DNA of 62,482 nucleotides, filler included, from Collodictyon triciliatum (lineage: Eukaryota): the NCBI GenBank assembly GCA_043381765.1. It is 12 parts of 12 records of this genome, joined end to end, with 100 filler letters (N's around TTAATTAATTAA, not from the genome) between each part and the next. Parts side by side here need not be neighbours in the genome. Positions count along the whole stretch, not along the records: positions 1 to 5,450 come from JBHJMP010005186.1; 11 more parts are not named here. The stretch is one strand, 5' to 3'. The stretch's first letter is position 1; each line of letters opens with the position of its first letter. This document shows, one piece after another, positions 1 to 21,728 of this stretch. Under the pieces are notes generated by a model. The model was not told the DNA's origin. It ran no database searches and saw nothing but the letters and a program-made list of their open reading frames with translations. A program made the translations under genes and the position numbers.

Positions 1-98
1 ATCACTATCACTATCACTATCACTATCACTATCACTATCACTATCACTATCACTATCACTATCACTATCACTATCACTATCACTATCACTATCACTAT
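1..98. repeat. (ATCACT)n microsatellite at contig end, intronic
   Basis: About 16 perfect hexamer copies, lying just past a GT donor (109-108, minus strand) of the BAR-like gene. Confidence 0.95.
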
Positions 99-109
99 TT
101 GTCATGTAC

Positions 110-1213
110 CTTGGCATGCCTAATATCTTGTTGGGTGGCTCTGATTGGTGCCCACACCATGTTTTTCATCGACTGCACCTGTGGCGAGGATATTCCAATA
201 AGAATAAATAATACTCATATGAAAATCGGCATGGTATTAGTGTATATGAGAAAATGGGATGGTTGTATTCCCAAGAAATAAATGCATATACCCATGTTGC
301 TGTGGACTGGTCGAGCTTTACAAAATTTTCCCCATATGTTTTGAAAGCATCTCCTGGTAAAAAAAAATTGGAGCAAGGTTTAGTGGAGCTGATAGTATTG
401 CTTTTGTGTAATGTATACAATGATGATATTGCAGGGATATATTGACAAAATGCAAGATACTTTATCATTATATAGTCTCAGAATGAAACTTAATAACTAC
501 AAATTTATGGATTGCTTTAATTTATCTAAAAATACATGTGAAATTTTTTTTTATTTTGAACAAATCAGTTGTAATTGTGGGTTTTTTTTTTCGTATGGTT
601 TGTGATGATGAGCCGAATTACTTTGCCTTGTCGTTTGCCCTTCATCCGAGAAGTTCATGACGAATTTTGTTAATTCCACCGATGCTTTCTCGTTTGCTGG
701 GCGACAGAATGTATTTAAGTGGTTAAGGAAAGTAGGATATCATGATGGTATATATTTGATGGTTATAAAAAAATTTTAATAAAAAAATTGATATAATAAT
801 GAATAAAATAATGAATGTTAACTTGATGCATTTATTTTATTTTATTTTGCAGTGGCCTTGTCAAAGAAGAAAGGAAAAGAACACAAGAGATGTCCCTATA
901 TCATGCCTTGTTGGCCATGGAGAACATACTTTCTGCTGTAGAGATGTATCCCCGAACACGCGACTCAAGATTATTGTATAGCAACTCGGCAGTTTTTAGA
1001 TCCTTTTTTTTTCAGGAGAGAAAAGCACATAAAAGAAAAAGATTATGTGTGAGGGGAAGCAAACCAGAAGGCCGGACCATTTTGCCAAAGACAAGGCCCA
1101 CAAACCTTTTTCCGCTGTACGATCTCTGGGGGCTCCTGGAACGCATCTAGCCCGATTTTCGTCGAGACAAAGTTTTTTGCCAATAAGAGCTTTGCTTTGA
1201 GGCGCCCTGACAT
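110..1213 (-). CDS. BAR-domain-like helical protein, 5' part (multi-exon, 3'-truncated by contig end)
   Basis: Five phase-compatible GT-AG exons splice to MSGRLKAKLLLAKNFVSTKIGLDAFQEPPEIVQRKK|DLKTAELLYNNLESRVRGYISTAE|TNEKASVELTKFVMNFSDEGQTTRQ|RDAFKTYGENFVKLDQSTATW|VQSMKNMVWAPIRATQQDIRHAK. The amphipathic N-helix followed by long helices resembles N-BAR proteins. The family call is an inference. Confidence 0.55.
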
Positions 1214-1681
1214 AAGCTGGTGCTGCGAAGCGAAAGAGTCTATGTTGCGTGATTTAGGAGAAGAAAAGAAGAAAAAGAAGAAAAAGAAGAAAAAGAAGAA
1301 AACAAAGAAAAAGAAGAAAAAGAAGAAAAGAAGAAAAAGAAAAGAAGAAAAAGACAAAAAGAAGAAAAAGACAAAAGGGAAAAGAGGACAACTCCGCTGC
1401 GTATGTCAAAACTCTCAGAAGCAGACACTTTGGGTAACCACCTTATCCTCACCCGCACCACACTTCAAGACAGAGTCCGAACCGCAACCACCTGCCAACC
1501 ACAGCGCCTGACTGGCCAAACTTCCCTGTGATACATCTGTATTCGCAGGTCAAATACTCAGTGCAAGTACGGTATCTTTATGTCTTCACCCTGCACGTGT
1601 GCCTGTGTTCTGGCACGCGGCAAAGCCAAAGAGATGCCGACAAGGCAACGGCGCACAAGACAAGTTTGCAGCAAGGCGCAT

Positions 1682-2941
1682 TTATCGGAGGCCCAGGAAG
1701 GCAGAGACGCGGCCCTTCTTGAACGGGACAGGCTCGGGCTGCGGAATCCCATTGTAGTTGCGCCAATACTGCAGAAAGGCGTTCTGAACTTCCTTTGTGT
1801 TGATGTCTCGGGTGGTTGTGCTACATGTTGATTAGTTGGGGCGGTCAGAAAAGAGTCAGGGAACATGTGAGGTTGGAGCACAGTACCCAGTCAGCGACTG
1901 AGGCGCGCCAGACATGGATTGTTGGTGTTTGTAAGTGGCTGAGGAAGTGTGTTGGGTTTGGAGTGAAGCACAGAGGGTAATAGGAGCAAGTAGAACGCAG
2001 GCGATGATCGTGGGATGCAAGTGGGCTTCAAGGATGAAAGTGCAGAAAGGGTATCGGTGTGGTGAAATAGAGCAGCTCACAAGAGAGTTACGCCATGGCC
2101 GACTTCGTAGCCGCCAAAGTAGCCCACCACAGCGCCGGCCGCAGCTCCCAACACACTCTTTGTGCGCAAGGCAAAGTAGCCACCAAATATTGCTGCTCCG
2201 GCAAGTCCGCTCTGGTTCGAAAACTTTCCGGCCTATGTAACAAGATGAAAAGACGAGTCATGTAAATAGATATCAGAGGTGTCTTGAGTTACGGTTAGGG
2301 TAGGCCGAGAATTATTAGGCATGATGGCACTATATTGTTCATTAATGCTATTTCCATGACGGATACTGTTTTTTCCCCGGTTATTAAACTTCACTTATTG
2401 AATATATTTCCTTTTATTTTATTTATGTATCTGCTTTAATTGCGATATTTAATAATGTGATAGCCTGAACAAAGCAAAAGGGAACATGGGAGATCCTAGG
2501 CTGCCCTCCGAAAGAGAGCAAATATCCAATAGAGAAGCAAACCTCGCGAACTGCCTTCATTTGTGGGCCATAAATGCGATCAACTTCGATGAAGCGGTCA
2601 AGGTCGGCGCTGTCCCACGCAGGCAGGCTTTCGAACGGGTAGAATTGGCGCGGTGTGGGCTCTGTGAAGTTTTGACATTGATCAGAGTCTTGGTCTACTC
2701 ACTCAATTTCTGCTGCCGAGTCGGGGGTGTATAGTGTGTTTGAGACGTCCCATCAGAAGCAAATAATTATGAATATATATATAAAGGTTTGAGCCTGAGG
2801 ATGAGGCGAGAGGAAGAAAATGGGTTGAAAACGATATATGGTCTTACTTACTGGACATTTGTATGACTTGCTGGTCTTGGCTAGTTTGTATGGATAAAAG
2901 ATAAGTCGACTAAACAATCGGTGGCTCCCTTGTTCTTCCAT
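1682..2941 (-). CDS. SDH6: Succinate dehydrogenase subunit 6 (plant-type SDH6)-like small membrane protein
   Basis: Exons ending at 2543, 2232-2081 and 1820-1682 splice in phase to ..LPAWDSADLDRFIEVDRIYGPQMKAVRE|AGKFSNQSGLAGAAIFGGYFALRTKSVLGAAAGAVVGYFGGYEVGHGVTLF|TTTRDINTKEVQNAFLQYWRNYNG..LGLR*. This is colinear with the recalled plant SDH6 pattern LPxW..D.D.FI..DP..GP..K.ARE, two Gly/Ala-rich TM helices, G.E...H and Q..F..WW. The first exon (ATG 2941) is tentative. Confidence 0.7.
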
Positions 2942-4839
2942 CTCTTGGGGTTGTGTTCGTGTGGGTTTGGTTCGGTGCGCCGCTCCACACACATCAGCTG
3001 ATTTATTTGATGCGGTTGATTCGCGAGGTTTGAATTTTTGTTCGTTTAGATATTTTTTATTGAATGTTCAGTGAAATAATCCATTTTTATTTATTTTCAT
3101 TTGTCAATTGTGGAATAGGGTAATATTTCCAAAAAATAGATGCACGGCCAGCCGTGGCTTTTCTGTCGATAATCGATGTCATATCTCGTCATCAGATTTG
3201 CATAATTTCAAGATGCGATAATGTGCTAGAAAAGCAAGAGAAACCACAAACGAAGTGTTCACCTTGAAATTGTATGCTCCAAATATAATATTTTATTATT
3301 TTCCACTTTAAGATGGATTATTGTGGAAAATGAAGAACAAAGAGTCAGTTTCGCGAAAAGCACATGGGTTTTAATGATTGTGGTATCTTGCTGGCAATCT
3401 GAGACAAAAGTAATAGTTGCACCAAAATTTTAGAGACAAGTATGTGCTAGATCGTAATGCAACGTTTAAACGCTCCATAATTTGGCAGTTCGTTCTGCTT
3501 CAGTCTGCACTCTCCTATGAGTCGTAATCCAAGATCGTTATTTATATGCCCCGGCCCGGTTGCTTAAAAGAGTTATGGTGCAAATCACTTCTACATTTGT
3601 TACTCTATTTCCTTTCCACAAACTAAATTGCTATTAGTATTACTGTTACTGTTGCCTAAAAATGTTGGCCCAGTTTTCTAAAAACAAGCAACAGACAATA
3701 GTCTCTTTCTTCCCTTGCAGTGGGATCACTTCTTTGTCCTTTCAAATATCAAGTCCTCGTTGTTTGCCCGTGCGCACAAATTCAGTTCGGTGTCATTACG
3801 TCCAAGTCGAAGAATTGGAATGTCGAGTAGGGAATACCTTTTGTAACTGACAAACAAACAATGCCAACCGGAAAGAAAGAACGCCAGTAATTCACGATGA
3901 CCGAGTATACCCCATGTTATGTGTATGTTAATGCAATAGATTGAGAGATACTGAACTTATTCTTACTTGTTTAGGTGCGTACACATGCACACTGTTTGCC
4001 CGCCTTCATGAAAAATTGTGGGGTAATTCCACAAGGAATTGCAGAAATTCTCCTTTTGGTTTCTTTTCAACAGTTAATTGAGAGAAAACAAAGCCGAGGA
4101 AACCGCCTTCGCCTCAAGGACAAAAATGAGCTGTGGACAAGACAGTGGAAAACCCCGGATTGTGTGGTTGGAGTTTTTGTGTTTTGGGTGAAAGAGAAGG
4201 AAAAGGAAAAGGAAAAGGAAAAGGAAGAGGAAAGAAAGAAAAAATATAGAAAGGAGAGAAAATGTTTTCACACATACTATTCCACCCGAGGTGAATCAGC
4301 TCCAACGCGATTTCTGGTTGTGTTCGAGACTGACAGAAGAGCGGATAAAGTTGTCGGTCCATGTAAGTACGCGCACGGCAGTTACTTCTCAAATCGATTC
4401 CGACGAATCCTTTCAACCATCTATCTCAGACAAGTATTACACCCTATTTCATTCAACAGGATTATTCTTTTGAGGAGAAACGAGTCTCTTTCCTTGCGTT
4501 TCTTGCTAGGTACTAAGACAGAAAGCGATACATCGTTGTTTGTCTGGTATTCACGGAAGTGGCGCTTGACCATCCCCTGGCATCGGGACCATGCGTAGCC
4601 GACAATGGACTTTGCTTAACCGGAGTATTGATACGCGTTTGTGGTTTTATAAACATACGCTCTTGCTTGCTCGGACTGTCTTCGGTGTTTGATGTTCCAA
4701 GCTTGGATTCGACTTGTGCTGTTTACTCTTGTTCCTTGGTTCTCGGTGCAATGAGCTGGGGCAGGATGTACGCACTATCTTTGGTGGGCGCTGGTTCTTG
4801 TGTTGCCTTCTCTTTGGATATCCTTTCAGATGAGGCCGC

Positions 4840-5450
4840 GCCTGATGGAAAACACAAGCCGAGCGGGGAGATCGGCGCAAGCCGCGACCCGTCGAAGCCC
4901 TGCATGTTGCAACCAGTTCTTCTGGTTCCAACGCTGGTGCAGAAAAACCCCGAGTGGCACGTAAGTCCAGGAAGACCCGCGTAAGGAAGCTGCTTGCAAA
5001 TCTGTCTGGGCGGACAGTATTTTTGTTAGATGTCAAGCAAGTCGCTTACAACAAGAAAAAGGCCCGCAGACTCACAGATGCGCTCGCCTTCTTCTTTAAA
5101 GCGAACAAACTTTGGGAAGAGACCATCTAATTGCGCTTACTGGACAGCGAAGGCCTTTTCCTGATCGCCTTCCGCACTGCAGAAAACGCCCGAAAGCTTC
5201 TGGAGCTGAAGCAAGTAAGTTTGATTGATATTATGAACATCTTCAGCAGAAGTAAACCAGCAGAGACCTCGGTGATGCTTTACCAACTACCGCTGGACGT
5301 GTGGCCGCAATTCCTTCGTGAGGAGCTGAAGCCGTTCAGACCGACCCACGTGGAGATCAAAAAGGACAAAGGCTTCTTCACAGACACGGCCGTGGTGAAG
5401 CTTCTTTGTCACAAGAACCAGCTCCATGCAAAGTTTACGGTCATGGGCAA
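4840..5450 (+). mobile_element. Decayed repeat copy 1, non-LTR retrotransposon ORF1 (RRM-like)-related
   Basis: Clearly homologous to the reverse complement of 5757-6347. It encodes ..FLIAFRTAENARKLL..VMLYQLPLDVWPQFLREELKPFRPTHVEIKKDKGFFTDTAVVKLL..AKFTVMG, a LINE ORF1-like RRM pattern. It is intronless and GC-richer than its flanks, and has an in-frame TAA at 5128-5130 where copy 2 has CAA. Confidence 0.6.
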
Positions 5451-5550: not shown

Positions 5551-6347
5551 CGAGATTTCCTTCCATGTCATCGTCGCTGTCGCTGTATGCGCGTATCTGC
5601 TGTGAGTCTTGCGGGCTCAGTTGTTGCCTGGCCTTGGCTTCCTTGACCCAGTTGCTGCTTGTTTGCTTGGAAGGTGTATTCTTTTGCGGGGCTTTTACTT
5701 GTCGTTCGTTGTTCGCGGCTGGCGGACGCTCTTTGAGGATGCGCTTTGGACACTTTTTTGCCCATGACCGTAAACTTTGCAGGGAGCTGGTTCTTGTGAC
5801 AAAGAAGCTTCGCCACGGCCGTGTCTGTGAAGAAGCACTTGTAATTTTTGATGTCTCCATGTGGGTCGGTCTGAACGGCTTCAGCTCCTCACGAATAAGT
5901 TGCGGCCACACGTCCAGCGGTAGTTAGTAGAGAATCACCGAGGTCTCTGTTGGTTTACTTCTGCTGAAGCTGTTCATGATATTGCTCAAACTTACCTACT
6001 TCAACTTCCAGAAGCTTTCGGGCGTTCTCTGCAGTGCTGAAGGCGATCAGGCAAATGCCTTCGCTGTCCGGTAAGCGCAATTGGATGGACTCTTCCCAAA
6101 GTTTGTTCGCTTTCAAGAAGGAGGCGAGTGCATCTGTGAGTCTGCAGGTCTTATTCTTGTAAAAAACGACTTGCTCGACCCCGTGAAAAAATACTATCCG
6201 CTCAGACAGACTTGCAGGCGGCTTCCTTGCACGGGTTTCCTGACTTACTTGAAACTCGGGGTTTTTCCGCGCCAGCGTTGGAACCAGAAGAACTGGCTGC
6301 AACTTGCAAAGCCTTCGACGGGTCATGGCTTGTGTTTTCCGTCAGGC
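5551..6347 (-). mobile_element. Decayed repeat copy 2 of the same non-LTR ORF1-like element
   Basis: Same sequence family as 4840-5450 but with independent lesions: TAA at 5926-5924, frameshifts, and a short deletion between CAAGCC repeats. It extends about 200 bp further 3' into a basic/acidic low-complexity tail. Confidence 0.6.
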
Positions 6348-6829
6348 ACATGCTTCACTACTTCGATCGATCCATATATACGATTGTTAGCTCTTTCGCT
6401 ATTGCTCTATACATTTTCTTTTCTTTTCTATGAGCTACCCTATGTCTCCAATAACAGTACGGACTTGTTATCGATTGCGGAGCTATACCAGCGCATCAAG
6501 TGATTGCTGCAACCATAGTAACTTTTCACCTCGGTCGCCCCAGAGCAGCTAGAAGGGAAGAAAGTAAGCAAAACAAAAACGGGAAAAGGAAACACTTTTT
6601 TTTCTTCGTCCTTCATTCAACATCATATCAACGACACTACAAAGAGGAATCAAGACATCAGAAAATCAAACCAAGATAATCAAATAGCAATTGCTGTGAA
6701 TACATGTAAGATTTGTTTCTCTTTCCTAAACTCTTTGTCAAACACAGGTATAATTCATACCAAAGAAAAAAAAAGAATGTTCGATTGGTATTATTTGAGT
6801 CTTTTATTGGATCGGTGGGCAAGAAAGCT

Positions 6830-19800: not shown

Positions 19801-21728
19801 GGAACATTATCTTCAACAGTACTACCAGACTCAAATTATTATGAAGGAAACATCTTACTCATAAATATCCCCTCCAATTTTTTTGGCTCTTTATCAAGCA
19901 ACCAGTCTTGGTCTTATGCTATTGTTTCAGGGATTCGCTCAAGTTTGCTCATTTGATTATATAGTATTATTTGTTTTTTCTTTTACTTATTTAATTGTAT
20001 GTTTATCAGTTCTCAATATTAATTCATATTTTCAAAGAGGAAGGTACTTTCTCGGAGCTCCGAGACACTCAGACAAATTCATCATTCCAAAGAAGTCATC
20101 CTGGTTTAGCATACAATATAATGGACTTCGTTTCTTTTGGTAAGTCTAGCCACTGTATCATCAGATAACTTTGTATGCATTTTGCACTGATAATTAATAA
20201 TTTAATAAAGGTCATATGGACAATTACGTTCACACTTCATTATTTGGTGACAAAGAAGGGTTCAGTCTGCCGTTCATAGGATTTCAGAACAACTATTTCC
20301 TCGCCAAACTTCTATACAATGTATCATTTTAACGATTAATTTTTGTTTATGTTATTTTCCCCCTTTTATTAATAAATCGTACAAATGAAGCTAATTGATT
20401 TATAATTTTCCATAATATGATAATAAAAGGACCTCCCTAACGATGAACTTGGAACCTATCCTTTAAGTCCTTACTTTATTGGAAAGAAAGGTAATCTCAT
20501 TACATTCTCAAAACAATTAATGTTACTTTAATTACTGAACTTCGAGTATATTATTGATGATGTTTCATTTAGGTCTCTTCGATATGCTTGCCTTCTCTGT
20601 GCAATATAACTCAAACTGTACCCGTTTTTCTATAAGAATGCAATCAATACCCGAGATTTTCGATATCTCTCTTCCTGTTGGGTTCTTGTCCACACAAATA
20701 TACATAGACTCTAATCGAATTTATAAAAGTGGATGTTCCGAGTCTATTGGAAATTCAAACATATCACCAATTGCGCAATACTACTGGGAATATGCCATCG
20801 TTTCATATGGAAAGACGGCAACTGTTTATCAATGTGATGGTGGTCATTTCACTAGTATAGGCGGAAATTCCAATATTACCCGTCAAAAGGAAATCTTTTA
20901 TTTTGATATTCTCTTTGCGCACATACCAAAACCTTCTGTGTCATGGAACTATGTTGTAGTGAGTGGTGCAGTATACGATCAAATTGAGGTCTGTATTTTC
21001 CTCTTGAAAACAGAAGAGCACTTCTCTTTTATATTGATATGCACTAATTTTTGTCTCTCCTTTTCTCTCTTTTATTTTATTTTGTTTGCTTTTTTTTTTT
21101 CACAGGGGAATCTTGCTCAAGTATCAGAGACTCCCACAAGCTCAAGTTTCGGAGGAGGAGAAAATACTGGCTATGGACCAAATGTTGTGGATATGATATT
21201 ACAAGAGAAATATGCACAGAGTGCAGTTTTTTCGTCCTCAAGGGCCCCAAAGTATAAGTTTATATGAAAGCATTTAGTTACTTTTTTCTTTGAATTTATA
21301 ACAAAATTGTCTTGATTTTAATATTAAAAATAAAAGGAAAATGTATTCAATAATCCCACCGATTGGAATCGGGATATTAAACGGCACAGTCGTTTGGGAA
21401 CAAAGTGATGACATTAGTGATGAGCGAGGACATTATCCTAAGAGCATTGAGCCCTCTGTTTGTTTTATGTTTAAAAGATGACTTCCATTGATTGCTTATT
21501 TTAAGTACTAAATGAACGTTATTTTTTAAGCAGATAAGCGGGATTTTTGACTTGGTTCACTTTTCAATCATCGATGATGATTATTCCATAGTGTATCGAG
21601 TGACCCTTAAATTTTTGATGCTTAATGAAGGAAAAACCATTACCAGCCTGAAACACACATTGATTCACATCTATGTAAATTCAGATGGAATTAAAGAAAC
21701 AGGCATCAAAAGGGTAAGCTACATTTAG

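Follow-up and report, generated by a model that had tools for sequence, protein, structure and literature searches.

The window analysed here, 62,482 nucleotides (nt) of DNA from Collodictyon triciliatum (GCA_043381765.1), carries on its minus strand at 1558-2880 a compact gene with four exons. It is a nuclear gene of a diphylleid (CRuMs) for a 138-amino-acid (aa) protein of the SDH6 family, named after a plant subunit of respiratory complex II, and its exons, its expression and its start codon are established. As the best explanation of the whole we favour, with some reserve, an SDH6-family accessory subunit that is older than the helix losses of plants and whose mRNA is matured by a spliced leader (SL). 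The window joins 12 pieces, each separate and at most about 5.45 kb long, with N spacers between them.

Evidence for the gene structure comes from contigs of four public sequencing runs (X1-X4, X2 being a DNA run) mapped on positions 1300-3300. The joints 1820|2081 and 2232|2543 are present in three of the four runs (X1, X3, X4) and the joint 2661|2852 in one (X1); the contigs of X3 and X4 end before exon 1 is reached. In the DNA run, contig sequence extends into the introns and no joint is seen. All three introns (190, 310 and 260 nt) are of the GT..AG type, poly(A) follows at 1558 (X1) and 1565 (X3), and the X1 transcript contig has a depth of 43.5. These joints and poly(A) sites bear out the compact spliced gene that an earlier note had read at 1682..2941, while the start codon proposed there at 2941 had to be abandoned: combined with the RNA-supported first joint, ATG 2941 yields a frameshifted peptide of 64 residues, and it would require a donor at 2847, of which there is none in the RNA. 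In mature exon 1 the first in-frame ATG, at 2858, opens the 138-aa protein, and the homologue of Diphylleia rotans begins at the same place. The features are as follows.

1..5450, no strand: first piece of the window, the sole contig physically linked to the gene (G000:C5186)
2884..2941, minus strand: part of the putative outron; includes ATG 2941, which the RNA-supported joint puts out of frame
2881..2883, minus strand: TAG, candidate trans-splice acceptor; the leader's final AG coincides with the acceptor AG
2852..2880, minus strand: exon 1 (RNA), with 22 nt of 5' untranslated region (UTR), ATG 2858 and 7 coding bases; N-terminus as in the D. rotans protein
2662..2851, minus strand: intron 1, 190 nt, GT..AG, phase 1, X1 only
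2543..2661, minus strand: exon 2, with the conserved SDH6 block W-x3-D-x3-FI-x2-D-x3-GP
2233..2542, minus strand: intron 2, 310 nt, phase 0, three runs; position common to the paralogue on contig C896
2081..2232, minus strand: exon 3, Gly/Ala-rich two-helix hairpin, likely the membrane part
1821..2080, minus strand: intron 3, 260 nt, phase 2, three runs; position common to the C896 paralogue
1682..1820, minus strand: coding part of exon 4, with a Q-x2-F-x3-W helix as in plant SDH6, followed by some 25 aa of diphylleid-specific tail and the stop TAA (1684-1682)
1558..1681, minus strand: 3' UTR, poly(A) at 1558 (X1) or 1565 (X3)

Run X4, a lake metatranscriptome, also holds a spliced relative of the SDH6-like gene (record 7) that is less than 90% identical, and further diphylleids therefore express such a gene.

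Relationship to SDH6 and identity of the host

Plant, red-algal and cryptophyte SDH6 sequences were taken as printed in Table S7 of Prokopchuk 2023 (PMC10952624). Aligned by eye, residues 15-112 of the window protein match Arabidopsis residues 39-137 (NP_563819.1) with 30 of 99 columns identical and one gap of a single residue; the BLOSUM62 score of about 118 was summed by hand and is not tool output. Fifteen of the identities lie in the first 32 aligned columns, which are not glycine-rich, and the match resumes at the last helix. The colinearity with plant SDH6 claimed in the earlier note thus holds, over about 99 columns and not 110. In the ESM Atlas, the D. rotans protein finds at the top a streptophyte cluster named 'Succinate dehydrogenase subunit 6, mitochondrial' (0.92, 183 of 256 features). 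On this evidence the product is, as first proposed, SDH6-like, and very probably a true SDH6 homologue. Rank 2 for the same query (0.91) is an unnamed 128-aa cluster, mostly of ciliates where the source is known, which may hold alveolate relatives of SDH6.

Several results weigh against this assignment. Atlas recognition was 2136, below the tool's mark of 2300, and the Cox20, OCIA, TMEM141 and NUXM clusters follow closely at 0.87-0.89. Word-seeded protein searches with exon 2, the full-length protein or a profile return no plant SDH6: exon 2 gave nothing (9 candidates), and full length and profile gave only the D. rotans protein (56 and 1454 candidates). Sequence searches of the PDB likewise found no plant SDH6 and nothing significant. 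The hydropathy of the predicted hairpin is weak, with a peak of 1.16 in the window protein. With exon 2 alone, all leads in the Atlas stay below 0.9, and Pfam has no matching family for the window protein or for the D. rotans protein (E up to 1 for the latter). A metagenome scan let one of 381 candidates pass, a wrong-frame match over a bacterial gene, which was dropped.

Could the likeness be generic, so that the protein would have no kinship with SDH6 and belong to the Gly-zipper hairpin proteins, Tim17-like or other? Exon 3 matches Gly-zipper families only in Pfam, below the cut-off, and Tim22 and a TIM23 chain rank second and third in the fold search (Z 6.8 and 6.6; rmsd 2.1 over 62 and 15.7 over 92 residues). 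These Z values tie, however, with unrelated hairpins and were obtained with a model whose mean pLDDT (predicted local distance difference test) is 52.7. Both predicted models are poor (41.1 and 52.7), the hairpin at residues 41-80 reaching 67-77 with hydropathy peaks of 1.16-1.42. Foldseek found no match at E 0.001, and the wide fold search gave no Z >= 8 and no complex II chain among its results, which excludes nothing. The strongest SDH6 likeness, moreover, falls in the non-glycine block of exon 2 and in exon 4, and hydropathy allows at most two hydrophobic helices against four in Tim17, Tim22 and Tim23. A better match to a Tim17-like protein, the outcome that the earlier note had named as fatal to its proposal, was not seen (no Tim17 Pfam match at E up to 1). 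We regard a merely generic likeness as scarcely credible.

A phmmer search with exon 2 against 1.84 billion representative proteins gave two matches, of which one is real: the unannotated EP00002_Diphylleia_rotans_P024291 of EukProt, 139 aa. The other, a snail zinc-finger repeat protein, was dropped as repeat-driven and came without a matched stretch. The D. rotans orthologue is identical to the window protein at 78 of 130 positions without a gap (score 428; maximum 51 in 1000 shuffles). The assembly (G000) further contains a paralogue on contig C896 (G000:C896:17496-18310, equal to L049:1501-2315), which is identical at 77 of 131 positions (59%) and has introns 2 and 3 at the same positions; its first exon was not found.

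Judged from sequence comparison, the host is a freshwater, non-plant diphylleid (CRuMs) close to Diphylleia. This agrees with the apparently non-plant flagellate first proposed, because of the best match to D. rotans and of mitochondrial gene content, not because of neighbouring genes. The mitochondrial contig C834 has open reading frames (ORFs) for sdh3 and sdh4, identified via Pfam, and for sdh2, atp4 and a ccmF-like gene, identified by eye; according to the accessible part of Kamikawa 2016 (PMC4779616), D. rotans mitochondria carry this rare sdh2/sdh3/sdh4/atp4/ccmF-type set, and the culture in question fed on a cyanobacterium. A strict search of G000 found one nuclear 18S gene and one SDH3. 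It weighs against the assignment that the nuclear contig and C834 are tied together by their joint likeness to D. rotans and not physically. The nuclear 18S gene (L044, G000:C1045:6387-8539) covers 2153 nt and has AT-rich expansions.

Complex II anchors, role and age of SDH6

The earlier note had predicted truncated SDH3 and SDH4, following the proposal that plant SDH6 replaces a missing anchor helix. This prediction failed, as both mitochondrial anchors keep three hydrophobic helices: SDH3 (138 aa) spans positions 5-121 of 122 in Pfam Sdh_cyt, SDH4 has 116 aa, and each shows three hydropathy peaks above 2.0. Arabidopsis SDH3 as printed in Table S7 ends short of the third helix (PMC10952624). 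SDH6 stands here beside complete anchors and would therefore not be a replacement part by origin; if the protein sits in complex II, SDH6 predates the helix losses of plants.

We consider it fairly likely that the protein is a stable complex II subunit. It would insert into the inner membrane with no cleavable presequence (among the first 30 aa, 3 are basic and 6 acidic) and form a Gly-rich two-helix hairpin with an amphipathic helix on each side. The hairpin might pack onto the SDH3/SDH4 anchor, the protein acting as a stabilising accessory subunit; SDH6 would have come first, and plants would later have lost anchor helices under its cover. Against this stands that an exon-wise search of the genome for SDH5 (PF14290) found nothing, with a control that stayed silent.

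A different role is conceivable for an SDH6 homologue, namely that of a chaperone in assembly, like the hairpin proteins Cox20, OCIA and TMEM141, or of a member of another inner-membrane complex, not stable in complex II. Cox20 (PF12597) is the best profile match of SDH6 in Table S7 (PMC10952624), the clusters that follow SDH6 in the Atlas belong to such proteins and to NUXM, the accessible part of a review cautions that SDH5-8 may bind transiently only (PMC10231475), and complete anchors need no patch. On the other hand, Pfam finds none of those families in the D. rotans protein at E up to 1, and plant SDH6 is reported, in a source accessible in part, as tightly bound to the membrane domain. 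We therefore rate a chaperone or other role as unlikely and retain the complex II subunit.

That SDH6 is older or more widespread than usually stated gains support from a CRuMs member, but the idea was already in print. The accessible text of Gray 2020 (PMC7050145) cites homologues of Sdh5, 6 and 7 beyond land plants and argues that complex II was larger in LECA (the last common ancestor of eukaryotes); that of Prokopchuk 2023 (PMC10952624) describes SDH5 and SDH6 homologues outside plants as likely present in LECA. The SDH6 row of its Table S7 holds plant, red alga and cryptophyte only and is empty for Obazoa, Amoebozoa, Malawimonada and Discoba. No CRuMs taxon appears in its supplements; the homologues listed by Huang 2019, which lie outside this comparison, may include some. 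The accessible part of a 2026 Acanthamoeba proteome (PMC13632651) names no such subunit. Within the literature compared, SDH6 in CRuMs would thus be a new branch of a kind already known outside plants.

Vertical inheritance appears probable to us, and an SDH6 acquired sideways from green-algal prey by a diphylleid ancestor unlikely; the latter would be a true homologue that is silent on LECA. Diphylleids eat algae, which counts for a transfer, as does the absence of SDH6 from the four groups just named in Table S7. In a conserved block of 29 residues, identities to Arabidopsis counted by eye number 18 in D. rotans and 14 in the window protein, as against 11 in Guillardia and 8 in Cyanidioschyzon. 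This order counsels care in tracing SDH6 back to LECA: the diphylleid block is nearer to Arabidopsis than those of the two algae, and therefore either slow evolution or an old green-algal transfer fits, slow evolution predicting the identical pattern. Any transfer must be old, since SDH6 is found in two diphylleids and since the two paralogues, 53-60% identical, have introns in common; the protein also lacks the N-terminal stretch of plant, red-algal and cryptophyte SDH6.

A probable spliced leader on the SDH6 message

In X1, the contig follows the gene as far as 2882, beyond which come 21 non-genomic bases; the gene itself has TAG at 2883-2881. This 21-mer has no match within the window, while 39 copies are found in G000 and none of the reversed control. 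All 39 copies were retrieved. In 19 of them (gene-type copies) a 51-nt leader without ATG (L013:6-56) is directly followed by GT; the other 20 have no donor. We are highly confident that the SDH6 message is matured by SL trans-splicing. At TAG 2883-2881 the outron would give way to a 51-nt leader supplied by multicopy SL RNA genes; the upstream out-of-frame ATG would be lost, and the 5' UTR would measure 73 nt. The region 2884..2941, previously read as coding, would then be outron, lost together with the start codon proposed in it.

In 18 of the 19 gene-type copies the start is one and the same A, which a TATA precedes by 28 nt; the remaining one is cut by a contig end. In their intron part stands an 8-bp hairpin capped by a GCAA loop (GNRA), paired in 40 of 40 cells across all five distinct rows with three one-sided changes. 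A U5-G run as in the U2 of this genome, a candidate Sm-binding site, lies 39 nt after the donor, where such a site is expected at 20-60 nt. The gene-type copies form inverted pairs spaced by about 2.7 kb; three of the pairs enclose U2, which at a fourth locus lies downstream, and U2 genes are 1.2-1.4 kb away in all four gene-type loci scanned at length. Such genes would specify an SL RNA of about 100 nt with GT donor, GNRA hairpin and U-run, interspersed with U2 genes.

G000:C4254, C5890, C3106, C532 (L013-L015, L042), both strands: SL RNA-like/U2 loci, inverted pairs with U2 between or beside
G000:C1535, C509, C331, C8022 and others (L039-L041, L053-L064), no strand: LINE-like (long interspersed nuclear element) family headed by the leader and 0-35 AG units; the leaders of older copies are diverged, and an additional upstream block is common to four copies

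Some observations speak against an SL system. The leader joint on the SDH6 mRNA is seen in one contig of one run, the hairpin is without any two-sided change, and the folding of the whole RNA gives a z of -0.5 to -1.7. The U-run is preceded by C (A in U2) and misses the default A-T4-6-G rule given in the accessible part of PMC7986045. A shared SL/U2 upstream promoter element was not significant (228 of 2000 shuffles) and was rejected. The leader might instead come from an abundant repeat RNA, joined to the message as a chimera by template switching or in assembly, and the multicopy locus might be an ordinary snRNA-like (small nuclear RNA) or retroelement sequence: the joint comes from a single contig, 20 of the 39 genomic copies head dispersed repeats, and Rfam assigns no family to the locus itself, recognising only U2 there. 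Yet the joint falls exactly on the base before GT in the 19 gene-type copies and exactly on the gene's TAG, when YAG makes up only 1.4% of upstream positions, and the contig depth is 43.5. A chimera is highly improbable in our judgement, and SL trans-splicing remains the preferred explanation. Cryptophyte prey as the source of the leader was rejected, the Guillardia leader being a different 17-mer and G000 yielding the single nuclear 18S and SDH3 genes mentioned above; no leader occurs in viral contigs.

In genomic DNA the leader also heads one repeat family and two other sequences. Of the 20 donor-less copies, 17 begin abruptly at position 1 of the leader, have T there in place of A, and carry 0-35 AG units. 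Fourteen run into the 5' end of one retroelement repeat, four stop at a contig end and two precede other sequences; conversely, all 12 repeat copies inspected carry the leader, diverged in six. In the one long copy of the repeat an ORF1-like frame is accompanied by an endonuclease-like piece (PF03372, E 0.004, below cut-off), and contig C509 has a second, partial leader in tandem. The most plausible reading of the donor-less copies is that they are DNA made from trans-spliced LINE RNA. The T at position 1 may reflect a modified cap-adjacent A, and AG units may be added with each cycle of re-trans-splicing and re-insertion; plain rivals are a T already present in the master element and AG units gained by slippage. 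In L041 (about 150-400, minus strand) an insert interrupts the endonuclease-like frame and has, by eye, TG..CA ends and a 5-bp duplication, resembling a solo long terminal repeat.

An SL system in Diphyllatea appears to be undescribed for the CRuMs supergroup. The accessible lineage lists of Roy 2017 (PMC5619915) and Wenzel 2021 (PMC7986045) are without CRuMs, and in the full-text literature, with subscription papers and preprint supplements outside its reach, we found no report of spliced leaders in CRuMs or Diphylleia and no occurrence of the leader sequence itself. Papers naming a spliced leader beside Collodictyon or CRuMs mean alveolates, where their text could be checked, and a term search of the Diphyllatea transcriptome paper (PMC11603278) gave neither 'leader' nor 'splic'.

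As regards the rest of the window, Pfam domains of CFAP97, TmcB and Prp19 were found on other pieces (3 of 16 ORFs scanned), and CEP97 and SMC6 had no Pfam match on the ORFs tried. The earlier note had argued from genes 'not land-plant-like'; the three domains are real, CEP97 gave no Pfam match, and the pieces are unlinked contigs, so that CFAP97, TmcB and Prp19 say nothing about the host of the SDH6 gene and the argument was rejected. A tandem ATCACT repeat at the contig end (1-98) may be a simple repeat or telomere-like, and exon-like ORFs at 212-1150 (plus strand), without a Pfam match, belong to a gene converging on SDH6. Repeat pieces at 4878-5450 and 5551-6350 are 86-90% identical to each other and to DNA in L039 and beside a reverse-transcriptase ORF (L051). 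An ORF at 20539-21267 (plus strand) matches the bacterial-type Glucodextran_C domain (E 7e-11) on an intron-rich contig.

Significance and comparison with known systems

The CRuMs branch stands beside animals, fungi and amoebozoans. It is in our view an even call whether the full picture holds, in which Diphyllatea would run an SL system, with its 51-nt leader, SL/U2 clusters and a leader-recording LINE family that gains AG units, and would keep SDH6 beside complete SDH3 and SDH4, so that SDH6 occurs on both sides of the usual eukaryote root and its 'replacement' role in plants is secondary. The LECA claim for SDH6 in Table S7 rests on plant, red alga and cryptophyte, and a CRuMs member adds the opposite side of the tree; with anchors of full length, the notions of 'accessory subunit' and 'replacement helix' come apart, in an organism that can be cultured. 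Whether SL trans-splicing is ancestral or arose repeatedly is an open question in the accessible parts of PMC5619915 and PMC7986045, on which an SL lineage next to Amorphea bears. In practice, the leader would correct gene starts genome-wide and offer a lineage-specific primer for full-length cDNA from lake samples.

With plant SDH6 (Arabidopsis At1g08480, NP_563819.1) the window protein shares length (138 versus 142 aa), the order of elements, the W-x3-D-x3-F block, the Gly-rich hairpin and the terminal F-x3-W. It differs in lacking most of the 37-residue N-terminal stretch and in its conserved tail of about 25 aa, and the diphylleid differs in having two paralogues and, in both SDH3 and SDH4, the complete set of three helices. 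Table S7 lists Cyanidioschyzon XP_005537485.1 and Guillardia XP_005841411.1 as SDH6 homologues. The trypanosome and diplonemid 'SDH6', a separate row of about 330 aa in the same table (PMC10952624), is alike in name only, and yeast Sdh6 (SDHAF1), which also has the name alone in common, is a LYR assembly factor. D. rotans P024291, gapless and with the same start, comes from another species or clade and is known here as a protein.

The SL system resembles, as far as the accessible texts go, that of cryptomonads (Roy 2017, PMC5619915) and also long leaders of animals, for instance Hydra SL-B (46 nt, PMC7986045), in its roughly 20 gene copies in small clusters on both strands, and in GT donor, U-rich site and AG acceptor at the target gene. 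It differs in the unrelated 51-nt sequence (17 nt in Guillardia), in the inverted arrangement of gene pairs spaced by about 2.7 kb and enclosing U2, and in the C before the U-run. The leader-headed copies recall the relict-SL retrogenes of dinoflagellates, as described in the accessible part of PMC5585692, which are likewise DNA copies starting with the leader, and the tandem partial leader on C509 fits this likeness; here, however, they belong mostly to one LINE-like family, carry 0-35 AG units after the leader and begin with T instead of A.
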